A stretch of 43,626 bases of DNA, from positions 1 to 43,626 of the IMG/VR virus record IMGVR_UViG_3300037430_000005. One strand, 5' to 3'. The stretch comes from a virus. Below the pieces are notes generated by a model. It did no database searches, was not told the origin of the DNA, and saw nothing but the letters and a program-made list of their open reading frames with translations. The translations under genes and the position numbers were made by a program. How positions within the stretch are numbered: position 1 is the stretch's first letter; each line of letters opens with the position of its first letter. This document shows positions 7,250-23,692 of the stretch, piece by piece.

Positions 7250-7366
7250 GTGCGCGCTCCTTTGAAGGTGGCCCGACAAAAATCGCGGGCGGCTGCGGAA
7301 TCTCGGCATTGATCGGTCGCCACAAATGCAAGGGAATTATATACTTGAGTGCGAAGCATGATTGAA

Positions 7367-7807
7367 TCACGATTCTGTCTTGCAGTCGGCCGTCTCCCTG
7401 TCGTGTTCGTGCTTGCAGACAGGGCAGATGACTCCCGATGTGAAGTACTCGCGCAGCCGGTCCCAACAGCCCTCGCAAAACGGGCCGACGAAATCAGCGT
7501 AGGCCGGGTGTGGCTTCGCCGACTCGCCGCAATTGGTGCAGATGGGAGGACCAGCACGCCAAGGCACGCCATCGGCAGAATGAATCTGATGGTCGCGGTG
7601 ATATTCACAGTCCTTGCACCAGATGTCGCGGTCGTCTCCTGGCTCATGGGGCGTGCGCGAATTGAACGGGTGCGGCACCAGTTCTTCGTCCGGACATTCG
7701 TGGTCAAGATCGAAGACGAACCCAGAGTGGCAGTTGCAGCAATGAACATCCACCGCCGTGCCGTGCTCGCAGACGTGATCGCCGATGTCGTTGACCGTGA
7801 CTTTCAT
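7367..7807 (-). CDS. Cys/His-rich (multi-zinc-site-like) protein, cargo of the IS element
   Basis: ATG 7807 with AAGGAG upstream. Motifs HVCEH..HCCNCH..HEC..WCKDCEYH..CTNC..CEGC..CPVCKHEH. Confidence 0.6.
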   Translation of the reverse strand: MKVTVNDIGDHVCEHGTAVDVHCCNCHSGFVFDLDHECPDEELVPHPFNSRTPHEPGDDRDIWCKDCEYHRDHQIHSADGVPWRAGPPICTNCGESAKPHPAYADFVGPFCEGCWDRLREYFTSGVICPVCKHEHDRETADCKTES

Positions 7808-7808
7808 G

Positions 7809-7940
7809 TCACTTCTCCTTCGCGATCTTCGTGGCCCGGCGCTTCCGCCGTCGGGCGGGTTTACTCTTTGCCTTCGGGCGGTAGGCCAGCACCACGTCCA
7901 CAATCGCGTCCAGTTGTTTTGGAACCTTCGTCTTCGTCAT
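7809..7940 (-). CDS. Small basic protein (43 aa), cargo of the IS element
   Basis: Hand translation MTKTKVPKQLDAIVDVVLAYRPKAKSKPARRRKRRATKIAKEK. ATG 7940 overlaps the upstream TGA as ATGA. Confidence 0.4.
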   Translation of the reverse strand: MTKTKVPKQLDAIVDVVLAYRPKAKSKPARRRKRRATKIAKEK

Positions 7941-8332
7941 GGCCGGTTCTCATCGCCGTCCATCGCGTCAGTTCCTGCGAACGGTGGGTAGGGCTCGACG
8001 CGCCCGCTCTCCACCTTAGCGATGGCGGCTTCAGCTTTGGCGTATGGACAGTTGTCCCAGTGCGTCTTAGCCGGATTTCGGAGCACGCCGGAATCACACA
8101 TCGGGCAACCCCATCGCTCAGCGAAGATTCCCCGCAGGGCCGCGAGCAGGTCCGGCGCGGCGGCGATCAATCGGGCGTTAGCAGCGTTCTCCGCACGCGA
8201 CAGACCCGATCCAATATCCGGCGTGCAAGGCGCGGTGATTGCGAAGTGGCTGACCTTCGCGATGGCCATCCCATCGCCTTCGTTGATTTCCCACGGTCCA
8301 GGTGTATGCGTCGCGGTCCAAGTTGTGTCCAT
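7937..8332 (-). CDS. Hypothetical protein (GPWE...ANARLIAAAPDLL motif), cargo of the IS element
   Basis: 131 aa. The SD site TAGGAG overlaps the transposase stop, so the gene is co-transcribed with tnp. Confidence 0.6.
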   Translation of the reverse strand: MDTTWTATHTPGPWEINEGDGMAIAKVSHFAITAPCTPDIGSGLSRAENAANARLIAAAPDLLAALRGIFAERWGCPMCDSGVLRNPAKTHWDNCPYAKAEAAIAKVESGRVEPYPPFAGTDAMDGDENRP

Positions 8333-8341
8333 CGCAATCTC

Positions 8342-9265
8342 CTACTGAATCAGTGCCTTGTAAGTGAGTCGTTTGTCGGCCCTCCCGTCCACGAACGAGT
8401 CGAGCCGGTCGAGCGTGTGAATCTTGACGTTGCCTTCGTTCAGGCGGAACGTGAACTCGTCCACGTAGCGCGGGAGATGCTTCGGGCTGGCGTGATGGTA
8501 GACACCCATCAGCCCGCGCTTCAGGACCGCCCAAACACTCTCAATGCTGTTCGTGTGCGCCGCGCCGCGTGCGTATTCCCCGAGCGAGTGGTTGATGGTG
8601 TCGTGCCGAAAGAACAGCCCGTCGAGCCCGTCGAAGATGGCGCTGTCGTCGGTGTAGAGTTGCGAGCCCGCTTCGACGTTCCGGTGAATCTCGCCGTGAA
8701 CCTCATCGAACGTCATCTGACCGGACGGCCGCGCCTGCATCCGGCCGCCGCGTTCCTTCATGCCGAGCACGGCCGTTTTGCCGACTGGCCCGCGTCCCGC
8801 GTGCAGCTTTTTGTTCTCGTGCTTGTTCCCCTCCAGGCCGCCGACGAAGGTTTCGTCAATCTCGATGATGCCGCGCAACTTCCGCAGGTTCCGGCCGCCG
8901 CACGCTTCGCGGAGTCGGTGCAACTGGAACCATGCCGTCTTCTGGGTCACGCCGATCTGCTTGGCGAGCTGGAGACTGGAGATCCCCTTGCGGGCCGTGA
9001 CGAGCAGATACATGGCGTAGAGCCACTTGTGCAGCGGGATGTGCGACCGCTCAAGGATCGTGCCGGTTCGCACGGTGAAGACTTCCCGGCAGGGGTTGCA
9101 GCGGTAGTAGCCGACGCGCTTCGTGCTCACGACGCCAGCCTGACCCTTACAGACCGGGCAAACGGGGCCAACCGGCCAGAGTCGAGACTCGAAATACACG
9201 CGGGCCGACTCCTGATTGGGGAACCGCTCGAACAGTTGGAAGGTACTGATAGTGCTTTTCGCCAT
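8342..9265 (-). CDS. tnp: IS1595-family DDE transposase
   Basis: 307 aa. N-terminal zinc ribbon CPVCKG...YRCNPC. DDE-region motifs IIEIDETFVGG, LYTDDSAIF and HTNSIESVWAVLKRG. Confidence 0.85.
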   Translation of the reverse strand: MAKSTISTFQLFERFPNQESARVYFESRLWPVGPVCPVCKGQAGVVSTKRVGYYRCNPCREVFTVRTGTILERSHIPLHKWLYAMYLLVTARKGISSLQLAKQIGVTQKTAWFQLHRLREACGGRNLRKLRGIIEIDETFVGGLEGNKHENKKLHAGRGPVGKTAVLGMKERGGRMQARPSGQMTFDEVHGEIHRNVEAGSQLYTDDSAIFDGLDGLFFRHDTINHSLGEYARGAAHTNSIESVWAVLKRGLMGVYHHASPKHLPRYVDEFTFRLNEGNVKIHTLDRLDSFVDGRADKRLTYKALIQ

Positions 9266-9371
9266 GCCCTAATTGTAGCAAAAACGCCGTGCGCACTCAA
9301 GTATATAATTCCCCAATAGAGACACATCGCCAGCGCGGTACCGCAGTGGTGACAGGCTTGGACGTCGTGGC

Positions 9372-19332: not shown

Positions 19333-19811
19333 GGATGGCTCGCCAGCCAGTTCGCGTCAACCGCCGCACTCCGCACGAGCAGTTCACGATAGGACGCCAG
19401 CACTTCCGCCGATAGTGGTTCGTCAAACGCGCGGGCCACCAACCGCCGCAGAATGGACTTGGCGAGTTCGACGTACGGCTCGTACCGCGCATGGGCTTCG
19501 CCAGTGAGATTCTTGAGCCCCGCGTCTAGGCCCGCTTGGGCTTTGACCTGCCAGCCCTCGCCGCGGGTCTGCACCAAGTCCAGCAATGAACTGTGCAGGG
19601 TCACGAGCCGCCGCGTGATGGGTGTGCTGAACGGCACTTGGTTGAACGAGTGCGTGATGATCGCGACGTCGCGGCCATCATCGATCGCCTTGACGAACTG
19701 ACCGTTGTCGTACGCCATCGACGCGTCAGGTGTGAGGTTGGGCGGGCGATTTCGTGAGCATCCCACTGTCAGCATGACTGAAATAAGGCACAAAACACTA
19801 AGCAGATACAT
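19329..19811 (-). CDS. Lipoprotein (candidate exclusion or surface-modifying function)
   Basis: ATG 19811. MYLLSVLCLISVMLTVGC has a lipobox LTVG|C. Confidence 0.55.
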   Translation of the reverse strand: MYLLSVLCLISVMLTVGCSRNRPPNLTPDASMAYDNGQFVKAIDDGRDVAIITHSFNQVPFSTPITRRLVTLHSSLLDLVQTRGEGWQVKAQAGLDAGLKNLTGEAHARYEPYVELAKSILRRLVARAFDEPLSAEVLASYRELLVRSAAVDANWLASHP

Positions 19812-19833
19812 CTGTGACGTTCTATACTGTTGC

Positions 19834-20505
19834 ATGGGTCGTCCAGCCTTGGCTCCACCCGCGATCGGGTCTCGCTTCGGCAATCTCACTGTTACCGGCT
19901 ATCCAGATAGGGTCCGTGGTCGAGTCTTTTGTACGGTTCGATGCGATTGCGGAACGGTCGTGAGTTTGGAAGCGAGCAGGCTGCGGCGTGGCAATGACCG
20001 ATCCTGCGGCTGTTGGAAACGGAACCAGCTTGCGAACGCCAGTCGCACGCACGGCGCGGCGGGCGTCGGCAAGCAAACGCCTGAATACAAAGCGTGGTGC
20101 GCGATGAAGCGCCGCTGCTACAACCCGGCCGAAGACAGCTATCCGTACTACGGCGGGAAAGGGATCACGGTCTGCGATGAATGGCTGCACTCCTTTCCTC
20201 AGTTCCTGGCAGATGTTGGCCCTAAGCCCACCCCGAAACATTCGATTGACCGAATCAACAACGATCTGCCGTACCGTCCTGACAACGTGCGCTGGGCCAC
20301 ATCCTTGGAGCAATGCCAGAACCGCTCGGTCAGCCGTTATGTGAACTACAAGGGCGAACGCCTGCCGTTGGCTGAACACGCGCGGCGGGCGGGGTTGCCG
20401 CCGAAGGTGGTAGACAGACGACTGCGCCGCGGGTGGCCGCTACACGTTGCACTGACGAGGTCGCTTGATCGGAAGAAGCATCAGTCTCCACCCAACGCGG
20501 CATAG
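19834..20505 (+). CDS. Homing-endonuclease-associated DNA-binding protein, paralog of 651..1088
   Basis: FGNLTVTGY...CDCG...SCGC ... TPEYKAWCAMKRRCYNP...YYGGKGITVCDEW..FLADVGPKP..HSIDRINNDLPYRPDNVRWAT..EQ. It is the only plus-strand gene inside this minus-strand block. Confidence 0.55.
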   Translation: MGRPALAPPAIGSRFGNLTVTGYPDRVRGRVFCTVRCDCGTVVSLEASRLRRGNDRSCGCWKRNQLANASRTHGAAGVGKQTPEYKAWCAMKRRCYNPAEDSYPYYGGKGITVCDEWLHSFPQFLADVGPKPTPKHSIDRINNDLPYRPDNVRWATSLEQCQNRSVSRYVNYKGERLPLAEHARRAGLPPKVVDRRLRRGWPLHVALTRSLDRKKHQSPPNAA

Positions 20506-21560
20506 AACGCCTCCGCGCACGCACGCTCTCCGTCGGTAAACAGTCGCGCGTCATTCCACGCGTCATGATGAAAGGTGCCGCCAGCGGCACAGCACGCCGA
20601 CTGGCCCATCAACCGCGCCACGCCGACATCGAAGCCGTATTGCGCTGGCTTGATCGTTTCTTCGGGGATGTATGGGCACGGCGTCGGGTAGGTGTCTTGG
20701 AACACATACGCCGAGTAGTTGCTGCTGATCTTCGCCAACCCACCGGAGCGCCGGCCGTGATACGTCGCGTAGTCCCACAGCGGTTTGACCGGCTGCGCAT
20801 CGCTCAGGCCGGAGCCGTGCGAGCTCAACACCCCGTCAGGTTTGCGAAACGCCTGCGCGTTGATGGCTTGGGTCGCATGCTTGTCTTCGTTGACGAGTTC
20901 CACAAGCATCCACGGAAAGACGCGGATCGTCTCGATGGTCTGCCGATAGAAGTCCTGTTGTTCAATCGGGTCCGGCATCATCTTTTTGGTATCGGCGAAG
21001 ATGGTCCATTCGCCATAGAGCCCGGCATCCCCAACTTGCGTACAGGTCGCGATCACGGCCTCCCAATAGCCGGGGCTGTGCGTGTTGAACTCCCAACCCG
21101 TGTTCGGACTCTTCATTGCTAAGATCCGTACGAGATTCGCGCCTGCGGCTTTCCGGTCCTCGAGCAGCGGCGTGATATCAACGCCTCTCAGCACACACTC
21201 CGCTAACCGAAAATCAGTCGAACCTTTGATGAGAAACCGGGAGTCCCCCTGCATGAAATGATCGCCTTCGATCCGCAACCCCGTGCCAGTTGACGCCTGG
21301 GGTTCGAGGTAGCAGTCCGTCCAGTCGATGTCCCCAAACGGCGGCGGCCCCGGGTCGAGATTGATACTCGCGCTGTAGCTCGCATAGCCGTCCTTTCCGA
21401 TCGCGAGTTGGACTTGATGCCAGTCGCTCGAAATCCCCTCGAGCCGGACCCGGCCATTGGCTTCGGTCGTACCGCAGACGTCGTTCACGCACACCGAGGC
21501 CCCTTCGAGCGGGGCGTTGCTGTTGAGGTCGCGGACGGTGACGGAAAAGGCGCGGGTCAT
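20481..21560 (-). CDS. Glycoside-hydrolase-like protein (GH5-type TIM-barrel motifs) with an N-terminal CarboxypepD_reg-like domain
   Basis: ATG 21560. VTVRDLNSNAPLEGASVCVND..TTEANGRVRLEGI, then ANLVRILA and LVELVNEDK (NE acid/base-like). The listed start 21596 lies inside the inserted element's inverted repeat. Confidence 0.45.
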   Translation of the reverse strand: MTRAFSVTVRDLNSNAPLEGASVCVNDVCGTTEANGRVRLEGISSDWHQVQLAIGKDGYASYSASINLDPGPPPFGDIDWTDCYLEPQASTGTGLRIEGDHFMQGDSRFLIKGSTDFRLAECVLRGVDITPLLEDRKAAGANLVRILAMKSPNTGWEFNTHSPGYWEAVIATCTQVGDAGLYGEWTIFADTKKMMPDPIEQQDFYRQTIETIRVFPWMLVELVNEDKHATQAINAQAFRKPDGVLSSHGSGLSDAQPVKPLWDYATYHGRRSGGLAKISSNYSAYVFQDTYPTPCPYIPEETIKPAQYGFDVGVARLMGQSACCAAGGTFHHDAWNDARLFTDGERACAEAFYAALGGD

Positions 21561-21566
21561 TCTTTG

Positions 21567-22030
21567 GGGACTTATATCGTTGACTCCCGTGTTCACTTTC
21601 GGCTCACGCGCGAACGGGCCAACTGAAAGTCCCAGGCTGATCGCCCACCGTGCGCGAAGTCGCCCAGAACACGTCGTTGCTGTCGAGGAACACCTGACCG
21701 TTCACGGCGCTCTCGGCAGACGGTCCCCACACGCGCACGATGAGCATCGGGAATGTATCCCCCTCAGCGACGTCGTTGCCGATGTGCGCCTGAGCGCCAG
21801 CAGGCCACGCGGACACGTCTTCACCGCCTTGCGGGTTCACGAGTTTGCTTTTCATGCGATCCGCGATGGCCTTCCCCGTCGTGCGACGGCGCATGATCTG
21901 CTCGACGTCTTGCGCGCTCAGCCGGTAGTGAACGATGCGACCAATCGACGGAATCTGTTCGCTCATCTGTGTCTCCTTGAAGCCAACGTGTTCTGTTCCG
22001 ATTCATGAGGGAGTCAACGATATAAGTCCC
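21567..22030 (-). mobile_element. 464-bp non-autonomous (MITE-like) element with perfect 22-bp inverted repeats, an 8-bp target duplication and one cargo gene
   Basis: IR at 21567..21588, GGGACTTATATCGTTGACTCCC. Its exact reverse complement is at 22009..22030. Direct repeat ATTCTTTG at 21559..21566 and 22031..22038. Confidence 0.85.
21604..21966 (-). CDS. Hypothetical protein (120 aa), cargo of the 464-bp element
   Basis: AAGGAG 6 nt upstream of ATG 21966. MSEQIPSIGRIVHYRLSAQDVEQI... Confidence 0.65.
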   Translation of the reverse strand: MSEQIPSIGRIVHYRLSAQDVEQIMRRRTTGKAIADRMKSKLVNPQGGEDVSAWPAGAQAHIGNDVAEGDTFPMLIVRVWGPSAESAVNGQVFLDSNDVFWATSRTVGDQPGTFSWPVRA

Positions 22031-22205
22031 ATTCTTTGGGCACCGTGTGCGGGGCCGGGAGCACGGCCGCGATCTCCGTGACGGCGTCGATCAGCGCGAG
22101 CAACGTCTGCTCCACCTCAGCCACGGCAGCGTGGATACCGGGGGCCGTGCGGATCGTGTGCGCGTGCTTTGCTGCCCGATCCAACGCCTCTGCGAGTTCA
22201 TTCAT
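22014..22205 (-). CDS. Hypothetical protein whose last 5 codons (WDLYR*) are read from the inserted element
   Basis: 63 aa. The original end is reconstructed as ...HTVPKE*. Confidence 0.55.
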   Translation of the reverse strand: MNELAEALDRAAKHAHTIRTAPGIHAAVAEVEQTLLALIDAVTEIAAVLPAPHTVPKEWDLYR

Positions 22206-22488
22206 AGATCACCACTTTCACCGTCTGCTGATTCACGGTGCGCGCCGACCGATACGAGAGCCGATTCCGGCAGTCGGCGCAACTGAGCACCGCCTGATAG
22301 TCCTTGGGGATGACAAACACGGTCAGCACCGTCACCCGGATCACCGGAGGGAGCCGCCCGCCTTTGCAGCGATCACACCGCCTCATCGGGCCATCCACCG
22401 CGTCCGCGATGGTCTGCACCGGCGGCGGATCGAAGCGCCGATCATCAATCTCGCGCCGATCACCGACGGTCCACCGAAGCCCGCCCAT
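22198..22488 (-). CDS. Hypothetical protein with CxxC pairs
   Basis: 96 aa. CDRC...CADC. High third-position GC. Confidence 0.55.
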   Translation of the reverse strand: MGGLRWTVGDRREIDDRRFDPPPVQTIADAVDGPMRRCDRCKGGRLPPVIRVTVLTVFVIPKDYQAVLSCADCRNRLSYRSARTVNQQTVKVVIYE

Positions 22489-22521
22489 GTCATCGCAGCC
22501 CCATCTTCCGCAACCAGATGT

Positions 22522-22845
22522 TCACGCGCCGTAGCATCTCGGTGTCCACGGCGGCATCGTGCGCACGGTCGCGGGCGCCTGACTCCATTCGATCCAGCAC
22601 CGCCCGACGATCGAGCGCCGTGACGTCCGGCCTTTCAGCGCGATCCGGAACAGGTACGCCTGGGTCTTGCCCGTCACCTGTTGCACCACGGTCGGCGTCA
22701 GGGACCGGGTGAGGGTCATCAACCGCAAGTGCCCCGGCTGGCGGGGACTCGGGACCGCCAGCAAACAGAGCGAATGCGCGCCCCGCCGCTGACTGGTCAC
22801 GCTCCCCTGTAAGCGTCGGCCGCAGAGATAGCAGATCCAGGCCAT
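22522..22845 (-). CDS. Hypothetical protein (frame chosen by third-position GC)
   Basis: 107 aa. This frame has clearly higher GC3 than the overlapping 22490..22849 frame. Possible HTH at LTPTVVQQVTGKTQAYLFRIALKG. Confidence 0.4.
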   Translation of the reverse strand: MAWICYLCGRRLQGSVTSQRRGAHSLCLLAVPSPRQPGHLRLMTLTRSLTPTVVQQVTGKTQAYLFRIALKGRTSRRSIVGRCWIEWSQAPATVRTMPPWTPRCYGA

Positions 22846-23037
22846 TCATCCCGACCGTCCGACCCGCAGCGGCAACGGAATACCGAGGATCGAACAGAGC
22901 GCAACGACGACGACGATCACGAGCACGACGTAGAGGATCGTGGCCACGAAGGGCGGGAGTTGCGGCGCGAACTGTTGCAGCACCCACCAGACCAACGCGA
23001 CGAGAATGAGCAACCCCAAGAGCGCCATCAGATCCAT
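22846..23037 (-). CDS. Small two-TM membrane protein (holin-like)
   Basis: 63 aa with two hydrophobic helices. Confidence 0.5.
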   Translation of the reverse strand: MDLMALLGLLILVALVWWVLQQFAPQLPPFVATILYVVLVIVVVVALCSILGIPLPLRVGRSG

Positions 23038-23038
23038 G

Positions 23039-23692
23039 TCAGCTCCCTCCTATGCGCGCGAGAATGAACGTGGCCACCGCCATCACGACGATGATGATCG
23101 AGATGCCAATCGCGATATACGCCCGCGTGTCGTCTTTGGTGCGCCGATGGCCCTGCTGTTCCCCGGAGGCCAGATTCAGCCGCGCGTCCAGCCCGTCGAG
23201 CCGTTTACTGTTCGCGTCGATCTTCTCCGTCATCGATCCGAAGCGCGTATCGGCTTCCGAGCGCGTGATCAACGACGCCACCATCGTGTTCAACATCTGC
23301 CGCAGTTCGTTCAACGCTTCAAAGCGTTTATCCGCCGCCAGCTCCGCCTTGCTCACCGCCCGATCCGCCGCCGCCAGGGCGGCTTGCACGGCTTCCTGCG
23401 CCGTTTTGAGCGCCGTTTGCATGGCGGTTTGCTGGCTGAGAAACGCCGCGCTCAGCGCATCGCTCTGCGCTTCGAACCGTTGCTGATACCGCAGGTCGCT
23501 CGCCTGACTCGCCGCCTCCGCTGCCGCTTTCGCCGCGAGCACCGCCGCTTTCGCCGCTTCACTCGAGGACAGGAGCGCAATATCCTGAGCGTTGAGCTTG
23601 TCCTTCAAGCTCTCCGTCAACAGGTTGAACCGCGTCTCGATGTAGGTGGACAACGAGGGGCCCGGCTCCGGACAGTCGGCGCGGGCTGTCAT
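23039..23692 (-). CDS. Coiled-coil protein with a C-terminal membrane anchor
   Basis: 217 aa, A/Q/E-rich heptad-like. C-terminal AYIAIGISIIIVVMAVATFILARI. Confidence 0.5.
   Translation of the reverse strand: MTARADCPEPGPSLSTYIETRFNLLTESLKDKLNAQDIALLSSSEAAKAAVLAAKAAAEAASQASDLRYQQRFEAQSDALSAAFLSQQTAMQTALKTAQEAVQAALAAADRAVSKAELAADKRFEALNELRQMLNTMVASLITRSEADTRFGSMTEKIDANSKRLDGLDARLNLASGEQQGHRRTKDDTRAYIAIGISIIIVVMAVATFILARIGGS

Follow-up and report, generated by a model that had tools for sequence, protein, structure and literature searches.

What might explain how one small gene, with its own ribosome-binding site, came to stand between two phage genes that in a related phage overlap at their stop and start codons? 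The gene in question is carried by a 464-bp element at 21567-22030 of IMG/VR record IMGVR_UViG_3300037430_000005, a DNA of 43,626 nucleotides (nt) that was analysed over its whole length and is called the window here. The window is a tailed-phage genome encoding terminase, major head, scaffold, head-closure, ejection and exonuclease proteins. Perfect 22-bp inverted repeats form the ends of the element, and an 8-bp target duplication, ATTCTTTG, encloses it; all of this had been reported in a preliminary description of the DNA, and all of it is present in the sequence. We refer to the element as the cassette and to its gene as the cargo; ORF denotes an open reading frame. The locus is made up as follows.

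20481..21560, minus strand: downstream phage gene (glycosidase-like), 359 aa, with a weak CarboxypepD_reg-like N-terminus; starts MTRAFS, its ATG at 21560 kept by the duplication
21559..21566, no strand: target-site duplication, copy 1, ATTCTTTG (minus strand CAAAGAAT); single in the empty site of the related contig L016
21567..21588, plus strand: terminal inverted repeat GGGACTTATATCGTTGACTCCC, the end distal to the cargo start; fits all family-invariant positions
21589..21603, minus strand: subterminal spacer from cargo stop to repeat, minus strand GCCGAAAGTGAACAC; holds a GTG at 21596
21604..21966, minus strand: cargo gene, 120 aa, family phrog_19300, predicted small beta-barrel
21967..22008, minus strand: cargo 5' leader with ribosome-binding site AAGGAG (21973-21978), captured along with the gene
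22009..22030, minus strand: second terminal inverted repeat, perfect reverse complement of 21567-21588; gives the upstream ORF the residues WDLYR and a stop
22014..22205, minus strand: upstream phage ORF, 63 aa; now ends HTVPKEWDLYR, its stop within the repeat, where the L016 ortholog ends HTVPKE
22031..22038, no strand: target-site duplication, copy 2 (ATTCTTTG)

The element and its empty site

The two inverted repeats are complementary at 100% of their 22 nt, and in the 43.6-kb window the repeat has these two matches only, even when up to three mismatches are allowed. The direct repeat at 21559-21566 and 22031-22038 can be extended to CATTCTTTGGG, because the inverted repeat begins with GGG and finishes with CCC; the boundary between repeat and duplication was accordingly described at first as ambiguous up to 11 bp. 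The reading as a 22-bp repeat with an 8-bp duplication is settled by two comparisons developed below, one with the wider repeat family, all ends of which begin with GGGA, and one with the empty site of a related phage. The window is a metagenomic assembly, and misassembly or coincidence might be imagined to have made the repeats and the duplication. Such an origin is scarcely credible: no match to the repeat arose in 100 shuffles, an empty site exists, and control offsets across the repeat family gave no duplications at all (0/36). Over 1212 bp that include the whole element, an independent assembly, Logan contig SRR12917227 (L010), agrees with the window at 100% identity; the element is therefore not an assembly artefact.

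Relatives of the downstream glycosidase-like protein with 60-82% identity were found in metagenomic contigs through a large protein collection. One of these contigs, L016 (ENA ERZ27228497 k141_611281), comes from a related phage with an 80% identical glycosidase-like protein and an uninterrupted site. Its upstream ORF ends in EIAAVLPAPHTVPKE, and the TGA stop of that ORF overlaps the ATG of MTRAFSVTVRD in an ATGA. The L016 DNA reads ...ATCGCGGCCGTGCTCCCGGCgCCGCACACGGTGCCCAAAGAATGACCCGCGCC... and ...CACACGGTGCCCAAAGAATGACCCGCGCC... at the junction, with the empty site CCCAAAGAATGACC, and is exactly the window minus strand less the 464-bp element and one copy of CAAAGAAT. By blastn, L016 490-650 aligns with window 22205-22030 and L016 637-1723 with window 21571-20485; the 14 nt that both matches cover (L016 637-650) comprise the target octamer and those bases which could equally be assigned to the repeat tips. 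The filled/empty breakpoints (22030 and 21571) come from these alignments together with direct inspection. The preliminary description had predicted that removing the element and one duplicate would restore PKE and a stop, ATGA and MTRAFS, and had pointed to related phages as the place to look for such a site; L016 carries it and reads exactly so.

On this comparison the element is inserted into the AT-rich octamer CAAAGAAT at an ATGA stop/start overlap, and the octamer is duplicated. The original stop of the upstream ORF, the TGA of the ATGA, was displaced by the insertion, and the ORF gained its WDLYR tail and new stop from the repeat. The final two minus-strand bases of duplication copy 1 are the AT of the downstream ATG, and the downstream gene thus keeps its start at 21560; both consequences had been noted in the preliminary description. 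Translational coupling to the downstream gene through the ATGA is lost. The insertion is presumably tolerated because its cost is a five-codon tail on the upstream protein and the downstream ATG is kept.

The surroundings of the glycosidase-like gene are variable, as other genes lie upstream of it in six further contigs (L011-L015 and L017). Searching 50,697 GenBank phage records by blastn with window 20400-23100 gave no match, and among viral contigs no relatives of the glycosidase-like protein were found. Exact look-up returned no record for the 359-aa protein and, for the cargo, only L010, which is the same phage.

Roughly 1 kb away from the cassette is an HNH endonuclease gene (19705-20505, plus strand; phrog_374, E = 3e-56), whose neighbours are on the other strand. 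L016 lacks this gene, its positions 1723-1802 corresponding to window 20485-19739, and the gene looks like a second, independent mobile insertion, that of a free-standing homing endonuclease.

The cargo and a second insertion

The cassette carries one 120-aa ORF with its own AAGGAG, as first described; the motif lies on the minus strand 6 nt upstream of the cargo ATG. Also in agreement with that description, no transposase is present: nothing inside the element matches a transposase domain in Pfam or NCBIfam, and blastp with the transposase found elsewhere in the window finds none there. The cargo belongs to phrog_19300, a family of unknown function whose 859 homologs are all unannotated, and among viral proteins it matches just one, from an Arthrobacter phage and itself uncharacterised (E = 6e-8). 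Its AlphaFold model, a confident one (pLDDT 86.6), consists of an N-terminal strand, two helices and a small beta-barrel; a fold search of the PDB gave nothing significant, the best match being the UHRF1 tandem Tudor domain (E = 0.5, TM 0.38).

The closest homologs of the cargo, in L131 and L132, are 92% identical in protein and 87% in nucleotide sequence, the nucleotide match being confined to the coding region; they lie in operons without the repeats, beside lysis-type genes. Homologs without flanking repeats are also found in viral contigs L002-L006 and in L133. In L004 the homology begins 4 nt inside one repeat and extends from the leader through the ribosome-binding site and the ORF to a few bases beyond the stop, so that the interior of the cassette looks like ordinary phage DNA captured between two ends. 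Judged by these homologs, the cargo is an ordinary resident gene in other phages and not a mobility gene.

Scanning metagenome contigs for the first 20 nt of the cassette repeat retrieved a second copy, in a 10.4-kb groundwater contig (L019). Here a 476-bp element at 8459-8934 has the repeats GGGACTTATATTATTAACTTCC and GGGACTTATATCGTTGACTCCA, the same subterminal sequences as the window cassette, a homologous cargo of 124 aa and its own 8-bp duplication, CATCAGAA. The motif GTGTTCACTT that adjoins the repeat occurs in L019 and also in a further contig, L008. When L019 is compared with the whole window by blastn, a single match results, pairing 8459-8934 with 21567-22030 and running exactly from one repeat to the other. 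The phages are distant from each other, with head-gene proteins only 25-40% identical, and the insertion loci are non-homologous: the L019 cassette adjoins a portal-like gene. Read from coordinates, its target, TTCTGATG, also spans a stop/start overlap of two genes (TGATG). These alignments show that the same cassette is inserted independently in another phage. Further copies of the repeat had been proposed as something to look for, and they exist, in L019 at an unrelated locus with a different duplication and, as described below, as a family in 110 viral-contig stretches.

The second insertion bears on another explanation, in which a homing endonuclease, or illegitimate or homologous recombination, inserted an ordinary accessory gene and the repeats are incidental regulatory sequences. 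Phage genomes are mosaic, the region upstream of the glycosidase-like gene varies among relatives, and the HNH gene nearby is itself absent from L016, all of which would suit such an origin. Neither homing nor recombination produces an exact 8-bp duplication around perfect 22-bp terminal repeats, however, and neither would account for an architecture that recurs 20 times with different duplications or for homology between two distant phages that stops exactly at the repeat tips. As to a regulatory role of the repeats, no sigma-70-type promoter was found in 21400-22300, and the single terminator-like match in that interval lies outside the element. We regard this explanation as very improbable, and transposition of the cassette as the reading to be preferred.

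The window and L019 cassettes resemble each other in a mosaic fashion. The leader, the adjacent repeat and roughly the first 100 nt of the cargo are 90-100% identical, whereas identity over much of the gene middle is 62-72%. This pattern may come from recombination of the cargo with resident homologs. Scanning of genome contigs for the 20-mer end gave two exact matches, both in Streptococcus orisratti scaffolds (L021 and L022), which were judged to be due to chance: they lie within a repeated gene of 40% GC and have no partner repeat.

IS1595-type ends in the window and in other genomes

Where might a transposase for the cassette come from? A degenerate search built on the cassette repeat found exactly two further sites in the window, where 0.01 were expected, at 7332 (plus strand) and 9313 (minus strand). 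These are the outer tips of perfect 22-bp repeats, GGGAATTATATACTTGAGTGCG, at 7332-7353 and 9292-9313, which bracket a transposase within an insertion sequence (IS) composed as follows.

7332..9313, minus strand: IS1595-family transporter IS, 1982 bp, repeats GGGAATTATATACTTGAGTGCG; candidate source of transposase in trans
8342..9265, minus strand: transposase; PF12762 DDE_Tnp_IS1595 (E = 5e-39) and PF12760 Zn_ribbon_IS1595 (E = 2e-9)
7937..8332, minus strand: 131-aa ORF
7809..7940, minus strand: conserved basic 43-aa ORF, MTKTKVPKQLDAIVDVVLAYRPKAKSKPARRRKRRATKIAKEK
7367..7807, minus strand: Cys-rich 146-aa ORF

The transposase also matches the NCBIfam IS1595 model NF033547 with 198 bits against a cut-off of 75. 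With three ORFs besides the transposase, some of its genes being linked by ATGA overlaps, the element is not a classical single-ORF IS. The cassette and IS repeats are identical at 16/22 positions, including all family-invariant ones, and share the motif GGGA.TTATAT..TTGA.T. The end GGGAnTTAT presumably resembles the ISNwi1-group consensus of ISfinder.

The IS1595 family is characterised by an 8-bp duplication and by a zinc finger combined with DDE_Tnp_IS1595 (PMC8101967), and AT-rich 8-bp direct repeats have been documented for ISApl4 (PMC12561309). The duplication around the cassette had been attributed to an IS1595-type transposase from its length; these papers agree, as does the IS1595 transposase bracketed by related repeats. 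Related repeats bracket IS1595 transposases in the window, in L018, L134 and L135, and at nine viral loci. The repeats of the L135 element are identical to those of the window IS, its transposase is 89% identical, and it has a perfect 8-bp duplication, TTCCAGAG. In L134, a bacterial contig of 3.04 Mb, a 2392-bp member with the duplication CAATAAAG contains a 381-aa passenger ORF. In L018 the exact cassette repeat stands 11 nt upstream of a homologous transposase that is 62% identical to that of the window. Homologs of the transposase number at least 7980. On this comparative evidence, the same kind of ends brackets IS1595 transposases in the window genome, in many phages and in bacterial chromosomes.

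A degenerate pattern of the ends, GGGACTTATATNNNTNACTYCC, matches in 110 viral-contig stretches, where the repeat-like ends pair up as 36-37 pairs of 295-2233 bp. Perfect 8-bp flanking repeats were found in 20/36 pairs, and in 0/36 when the flanks were displaced by 8, 16 or 24 nt. The 40 ends validated by a duplication give the consensus GGGA(C/A)TTATATACTTGACTCCC; every one starts with GGGA, the family-invariant positions include 2-4, 7, 8, 10, 11, 15, 17, 19 and 21, and conservation collapses beyond position 22. The duplications are 79% A+T as against 39% A+T in the flanks. Insertions lie at a median of 130 nt from a gene boundary compared with 225 nt for random positions (Mann-Whitney p = 0.003), which suggests that they are nearer to gene boundaries than random; the test is a crude one of ORF depth, noisy because of long spurious ORFs in GC-rich DNA.

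Elements of the family differ in content according to their length. Those of at least 1562 bp encode a transposase (57-68% identical to that of the window), always with extra ORFs, the exception being one 1756-bp pair that has no transposase and no duplication. One 1133-bp element retains a truncated transposase; in the remaining elements, of 295-1178 bp, the transposase is missing and cargo ORFs take up essentially the whole interior. Within the stretches retrieved, a transposase homolog is present in 32/108 viral loci. The cassettes with these ends carry at least 15 unrelated cargos, among them a Dam methyltransferase (PF05869) in two cassettes, an N6/N4 DNA methyltransferase (PF01555) in five, a D12 methyltransferase (PF02086) in one, and a TnpB (OrfB_IS605 plus Cas12f1-like TNB) in one; all other cargos are small proteins without a Pfam family. 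The cargo seems to be enriched for likely anti-restriction functions.

Such variety of cargo is relevant to the possibility that the cassette is autonomous, in which case its 120-aa ORF would encode a new and very small kind of mobility protein working on the 22-bp repeats, an idea already entertained for the MPME elements of mycobacteriophages. The resemblance to MPME1 and MPME2 is real: like the cassette they are about 440 bp long (439 bp for MPME1) and live in phages, with terminal inverted repeats around one small ORF, in MPME1 as here of ~120 aa, and they were recognised from filled and empty sites (PMC3029335). The cargo, moreover, has no known function. Against autonomy, the ORF has close homologs, with up to 92% identity, in operons where such repeats are lacking; no fewer than 15 unrelated cargos, methyltransferases and TnpB among them, are found between the same ends; and those ends are the ends of IS1595-transposase elements. 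The 8-bp duplication suits IS1595, whereas MPMEs add 6 bp of unknown origin at IR-L (PMC3029335). The described MPME1 copies are identical and their content is fixed, with no known transposase associated (PMC3029335); by these descriptions the cassette, with its 8-bp duplication, variable cargo and IS1595 ends, is set apart from them. An autonomous element is thus an explanation to which we give very little credence, and a cassette that depends on a transposase in trans is the reading adopted below.

Several arrangements within the family are of note in themselves. The eight methyltransferase cassettes, which lack a transposase, are in L086, L065, L097, L126, L075, L034, L094 and L067, and in L007 (9458-11004) an IS-type repeat abuts another methylase gene. 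A 382-aa TnpB is bracketed by family repeats, with no 8-bp duplication, in L030 (2751-3928) and L095 (3886-5063); it appears to be a nuclease of one mobile element riding as cargo within the ends of another. Three family ends are packed into 90 bp in L008 (639-725): 12 nt lie between an IS-type end and the cassette-type end that comes next, and 8 bp, TTTGCGAA, separate the latter from an oppositely facing end. This packing suggests nested or abutting insertions at a hot spot.

Classification and possible mobilisation

Mobile insertion cassettes consist of IS ends that enclose one or more passenger genes unrelated to transposition; a transposase is absent, and the cognate enzyme is presumed to mobilise them in trans (PMC3129680). 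The element at 21567-22030 has IS1595-type ends, an 8-bp duplication and a passenger gene without a transposase, and both presence/absence and independent insertion are observed. As for mobilisation in trans, an IS1595 element resides in the same 43.6-kb genome, with the similarity of ends given above. In our judgement the element is very probably a transposed, non-autonomous derivative of the IS1595 family, that is, a mobile insertion cassette. That it was mobilised by an IS1595-type transposase is well supported by the comparison of ends and duplications. Whether the transposase at 8342-9265 could itself move the cassette is a more delicate matter, for which we would put the chances at about even: mobilisation by the window copy is plausible but unproven, as the ends match at 16/22 positions and the exact cassette repeat stands beside a different transposase in L018.

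Five points weigh against this classification. The case rests on comparative sequence. No perfect duplication flanks 16/36 of the repeat pairs. The cassette and window IS repeats differ at 6/22 positions (5, 12, 13, 18, 20 and 22), so that cross-recognition by the window transposase is not assured. No target duplication surrounds the 1982-bp IS, which is flanked by AAATGCAA and CAATAGAG, and its recent activity in the window genome is therefore unproven; the duplication may be missing because the flanks have decayed, because copies have recombined or because of a deletion next to the IS. Finally, the cargo has no Pfam or NCBIfam match and no assigned function, and nothing can be said from it about a selective benefit. 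An empty site for the 1982-bp IS was sought through related loci of the neighbouring 157-aa protein and by exact look-up of the 142-aa neighbour, and none was found.

How does the cassette compare with other mobile elements? MIC231, an IS231-derived cassette of Bacillus cereus (De Palmenaer et al. 2004, as cited in PMC3129680), has in common with it the ends of a known IS, the absence of a transposase, the passenger genes and the presumed mobilisation in trans. The differences are that the ends here are of IS1595 type, IS231 belonging to another IS family, that the element resides in a phage genome, that it belongs to a family with highly diverse cargo, usually one gene per cassette, and that insertions are at AT-rich sites in GC-rich phages and tend towards gene boundaries. 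'Transporter IS' with passenger genes are a variant of the IS1595 family (Siguier, Gagnevin and Chandler 2009, as cited in PMC3129680 and PMC8101967). The element at 7332-9313 resembles them in having both IS1595 domains, ends starting with GG and passenger genes, and its relatives in their AT-rich 8-bp duplications; the 464-bp element differs in lacking a transposase, and the autonomous relatives differ in having an extra basic ORF of ~43-60 aa. The preliminary description called the element MITE-like, after MITEs, the miniature inverted-repeat transposable elements. The likeness stands as far as small size, terminal repeats, duplication, lack of a transposase and mobilisation in trans are concerned. 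The label is imprecise, however, as MITEs are typically non-coding and multi-copy, whereas 363/464 bp of the cassette are coding and it is present in one copy in the window; it is therefore a mobile insertion cassette and not a MITE in the strict sense. The mechanism is thus of a known kind, whereas the phage-borne family of IS1595-type cassettes seems to be undescribed. We found no literature on IS1595-type cassettes in phages or on methyltransferase cargo in them, in a coverage that was incomplete, and a prior description may exist.

A plausible course of events can be outlined. An IS1595-type DDE transposase, with an N-terminal zinc ribbon and helix-turn-helix and a C-terminal DDE domain, would bind both 22-bp ends, cut the target with an 8-bp stagger and join the element to it. 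Its source would lie in trans: either the 1982-bp element at 7332-9313, or a relative carried by the host, by a prophage or by a co-infecting phage. A preference for AT-rich targets in genomes of ~60% GC would steer insertions to gene boundaries, and selection would then purge those that are disruptive. The cargo is probably expressed by read-through transcription, because it is co-oriented with the operon and has its own Shine-Dalgarno sequence. More speculatively, the GTG at 21596, which is in the reading frame of the downstream gene and 7 nt past the stop of the cargo, may restore coupling by re-initiation; the downstream protein would then be 12 residues longer at its N-terminus. Equally speculative is the pairing of the two 22-nt repeats as a long-range duplex in the read-through transcript.

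Insertion sequences are regarded as rare in phage genomes, and the gain of single accessory genes by phages is usually ascribed to illegitimate recombination. Here, base-exact breakpoints, an empty site and a second insertion show that one small gene entered a phage operon by transposition together with its ribosome-binding site. Viral contigs contain at least 20 validated elements with these ends; many have a single gene, and eight have methyltransferases, which are likely to act against restriction. It is tempting to view these as parts of a cassette exchange adapted to phages, in which a widespread IS1595-type transposase and a basic protein of ~45 aa would move single-gene cassettes among phages and hosts. 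Orphan methyltransferases of at least three families, TnpB and small proteins of unknown function would be the cargo, and insertion into AT-rich gene junctions would keep operons intact. This wider proposal is tentative, and we hold it to be somewhat short of an even bet. If true, phage accessory ('moron') genes would have in it, functionally, a transposon-based equivalent of integron cassettes, and it would explain part of phage mosaicism and of the spread of anti-restriction genes. If the cassettes are active, they offer a defined and experimentally tractable route of accessory-gene exchange between phages and between phage and host. They also provide a natural collection of short, 22-bp ends for a compact DDE transposase.

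The conserved basic ORF of ~43-60 aa is present in most autonomous members and absent from the 464-bp cassette. Besides the window IS, such a tiny basic ORF lies beside the transposase in L135, L134, L018, L082, L041, L127, L121, L109, L078, L073, L093 and L129. It may encode an accessory DNA-binding factor, and no mention of it was found for IS1595 in the accessible papers.

The arrangement in L018 (112-1863) is a nested one, in which a repeat, a 90-aa cargo, an inverted repeat identical to the window cassette repeat, the transposase, two small ORFs and another inverted repeat follow one another. No clean duplication was seen around it. Its left repeat could be shared by a 346-bp cassette and the entire 1752-bp unit, and such nesting would be a plausible way for cassettes to arise.

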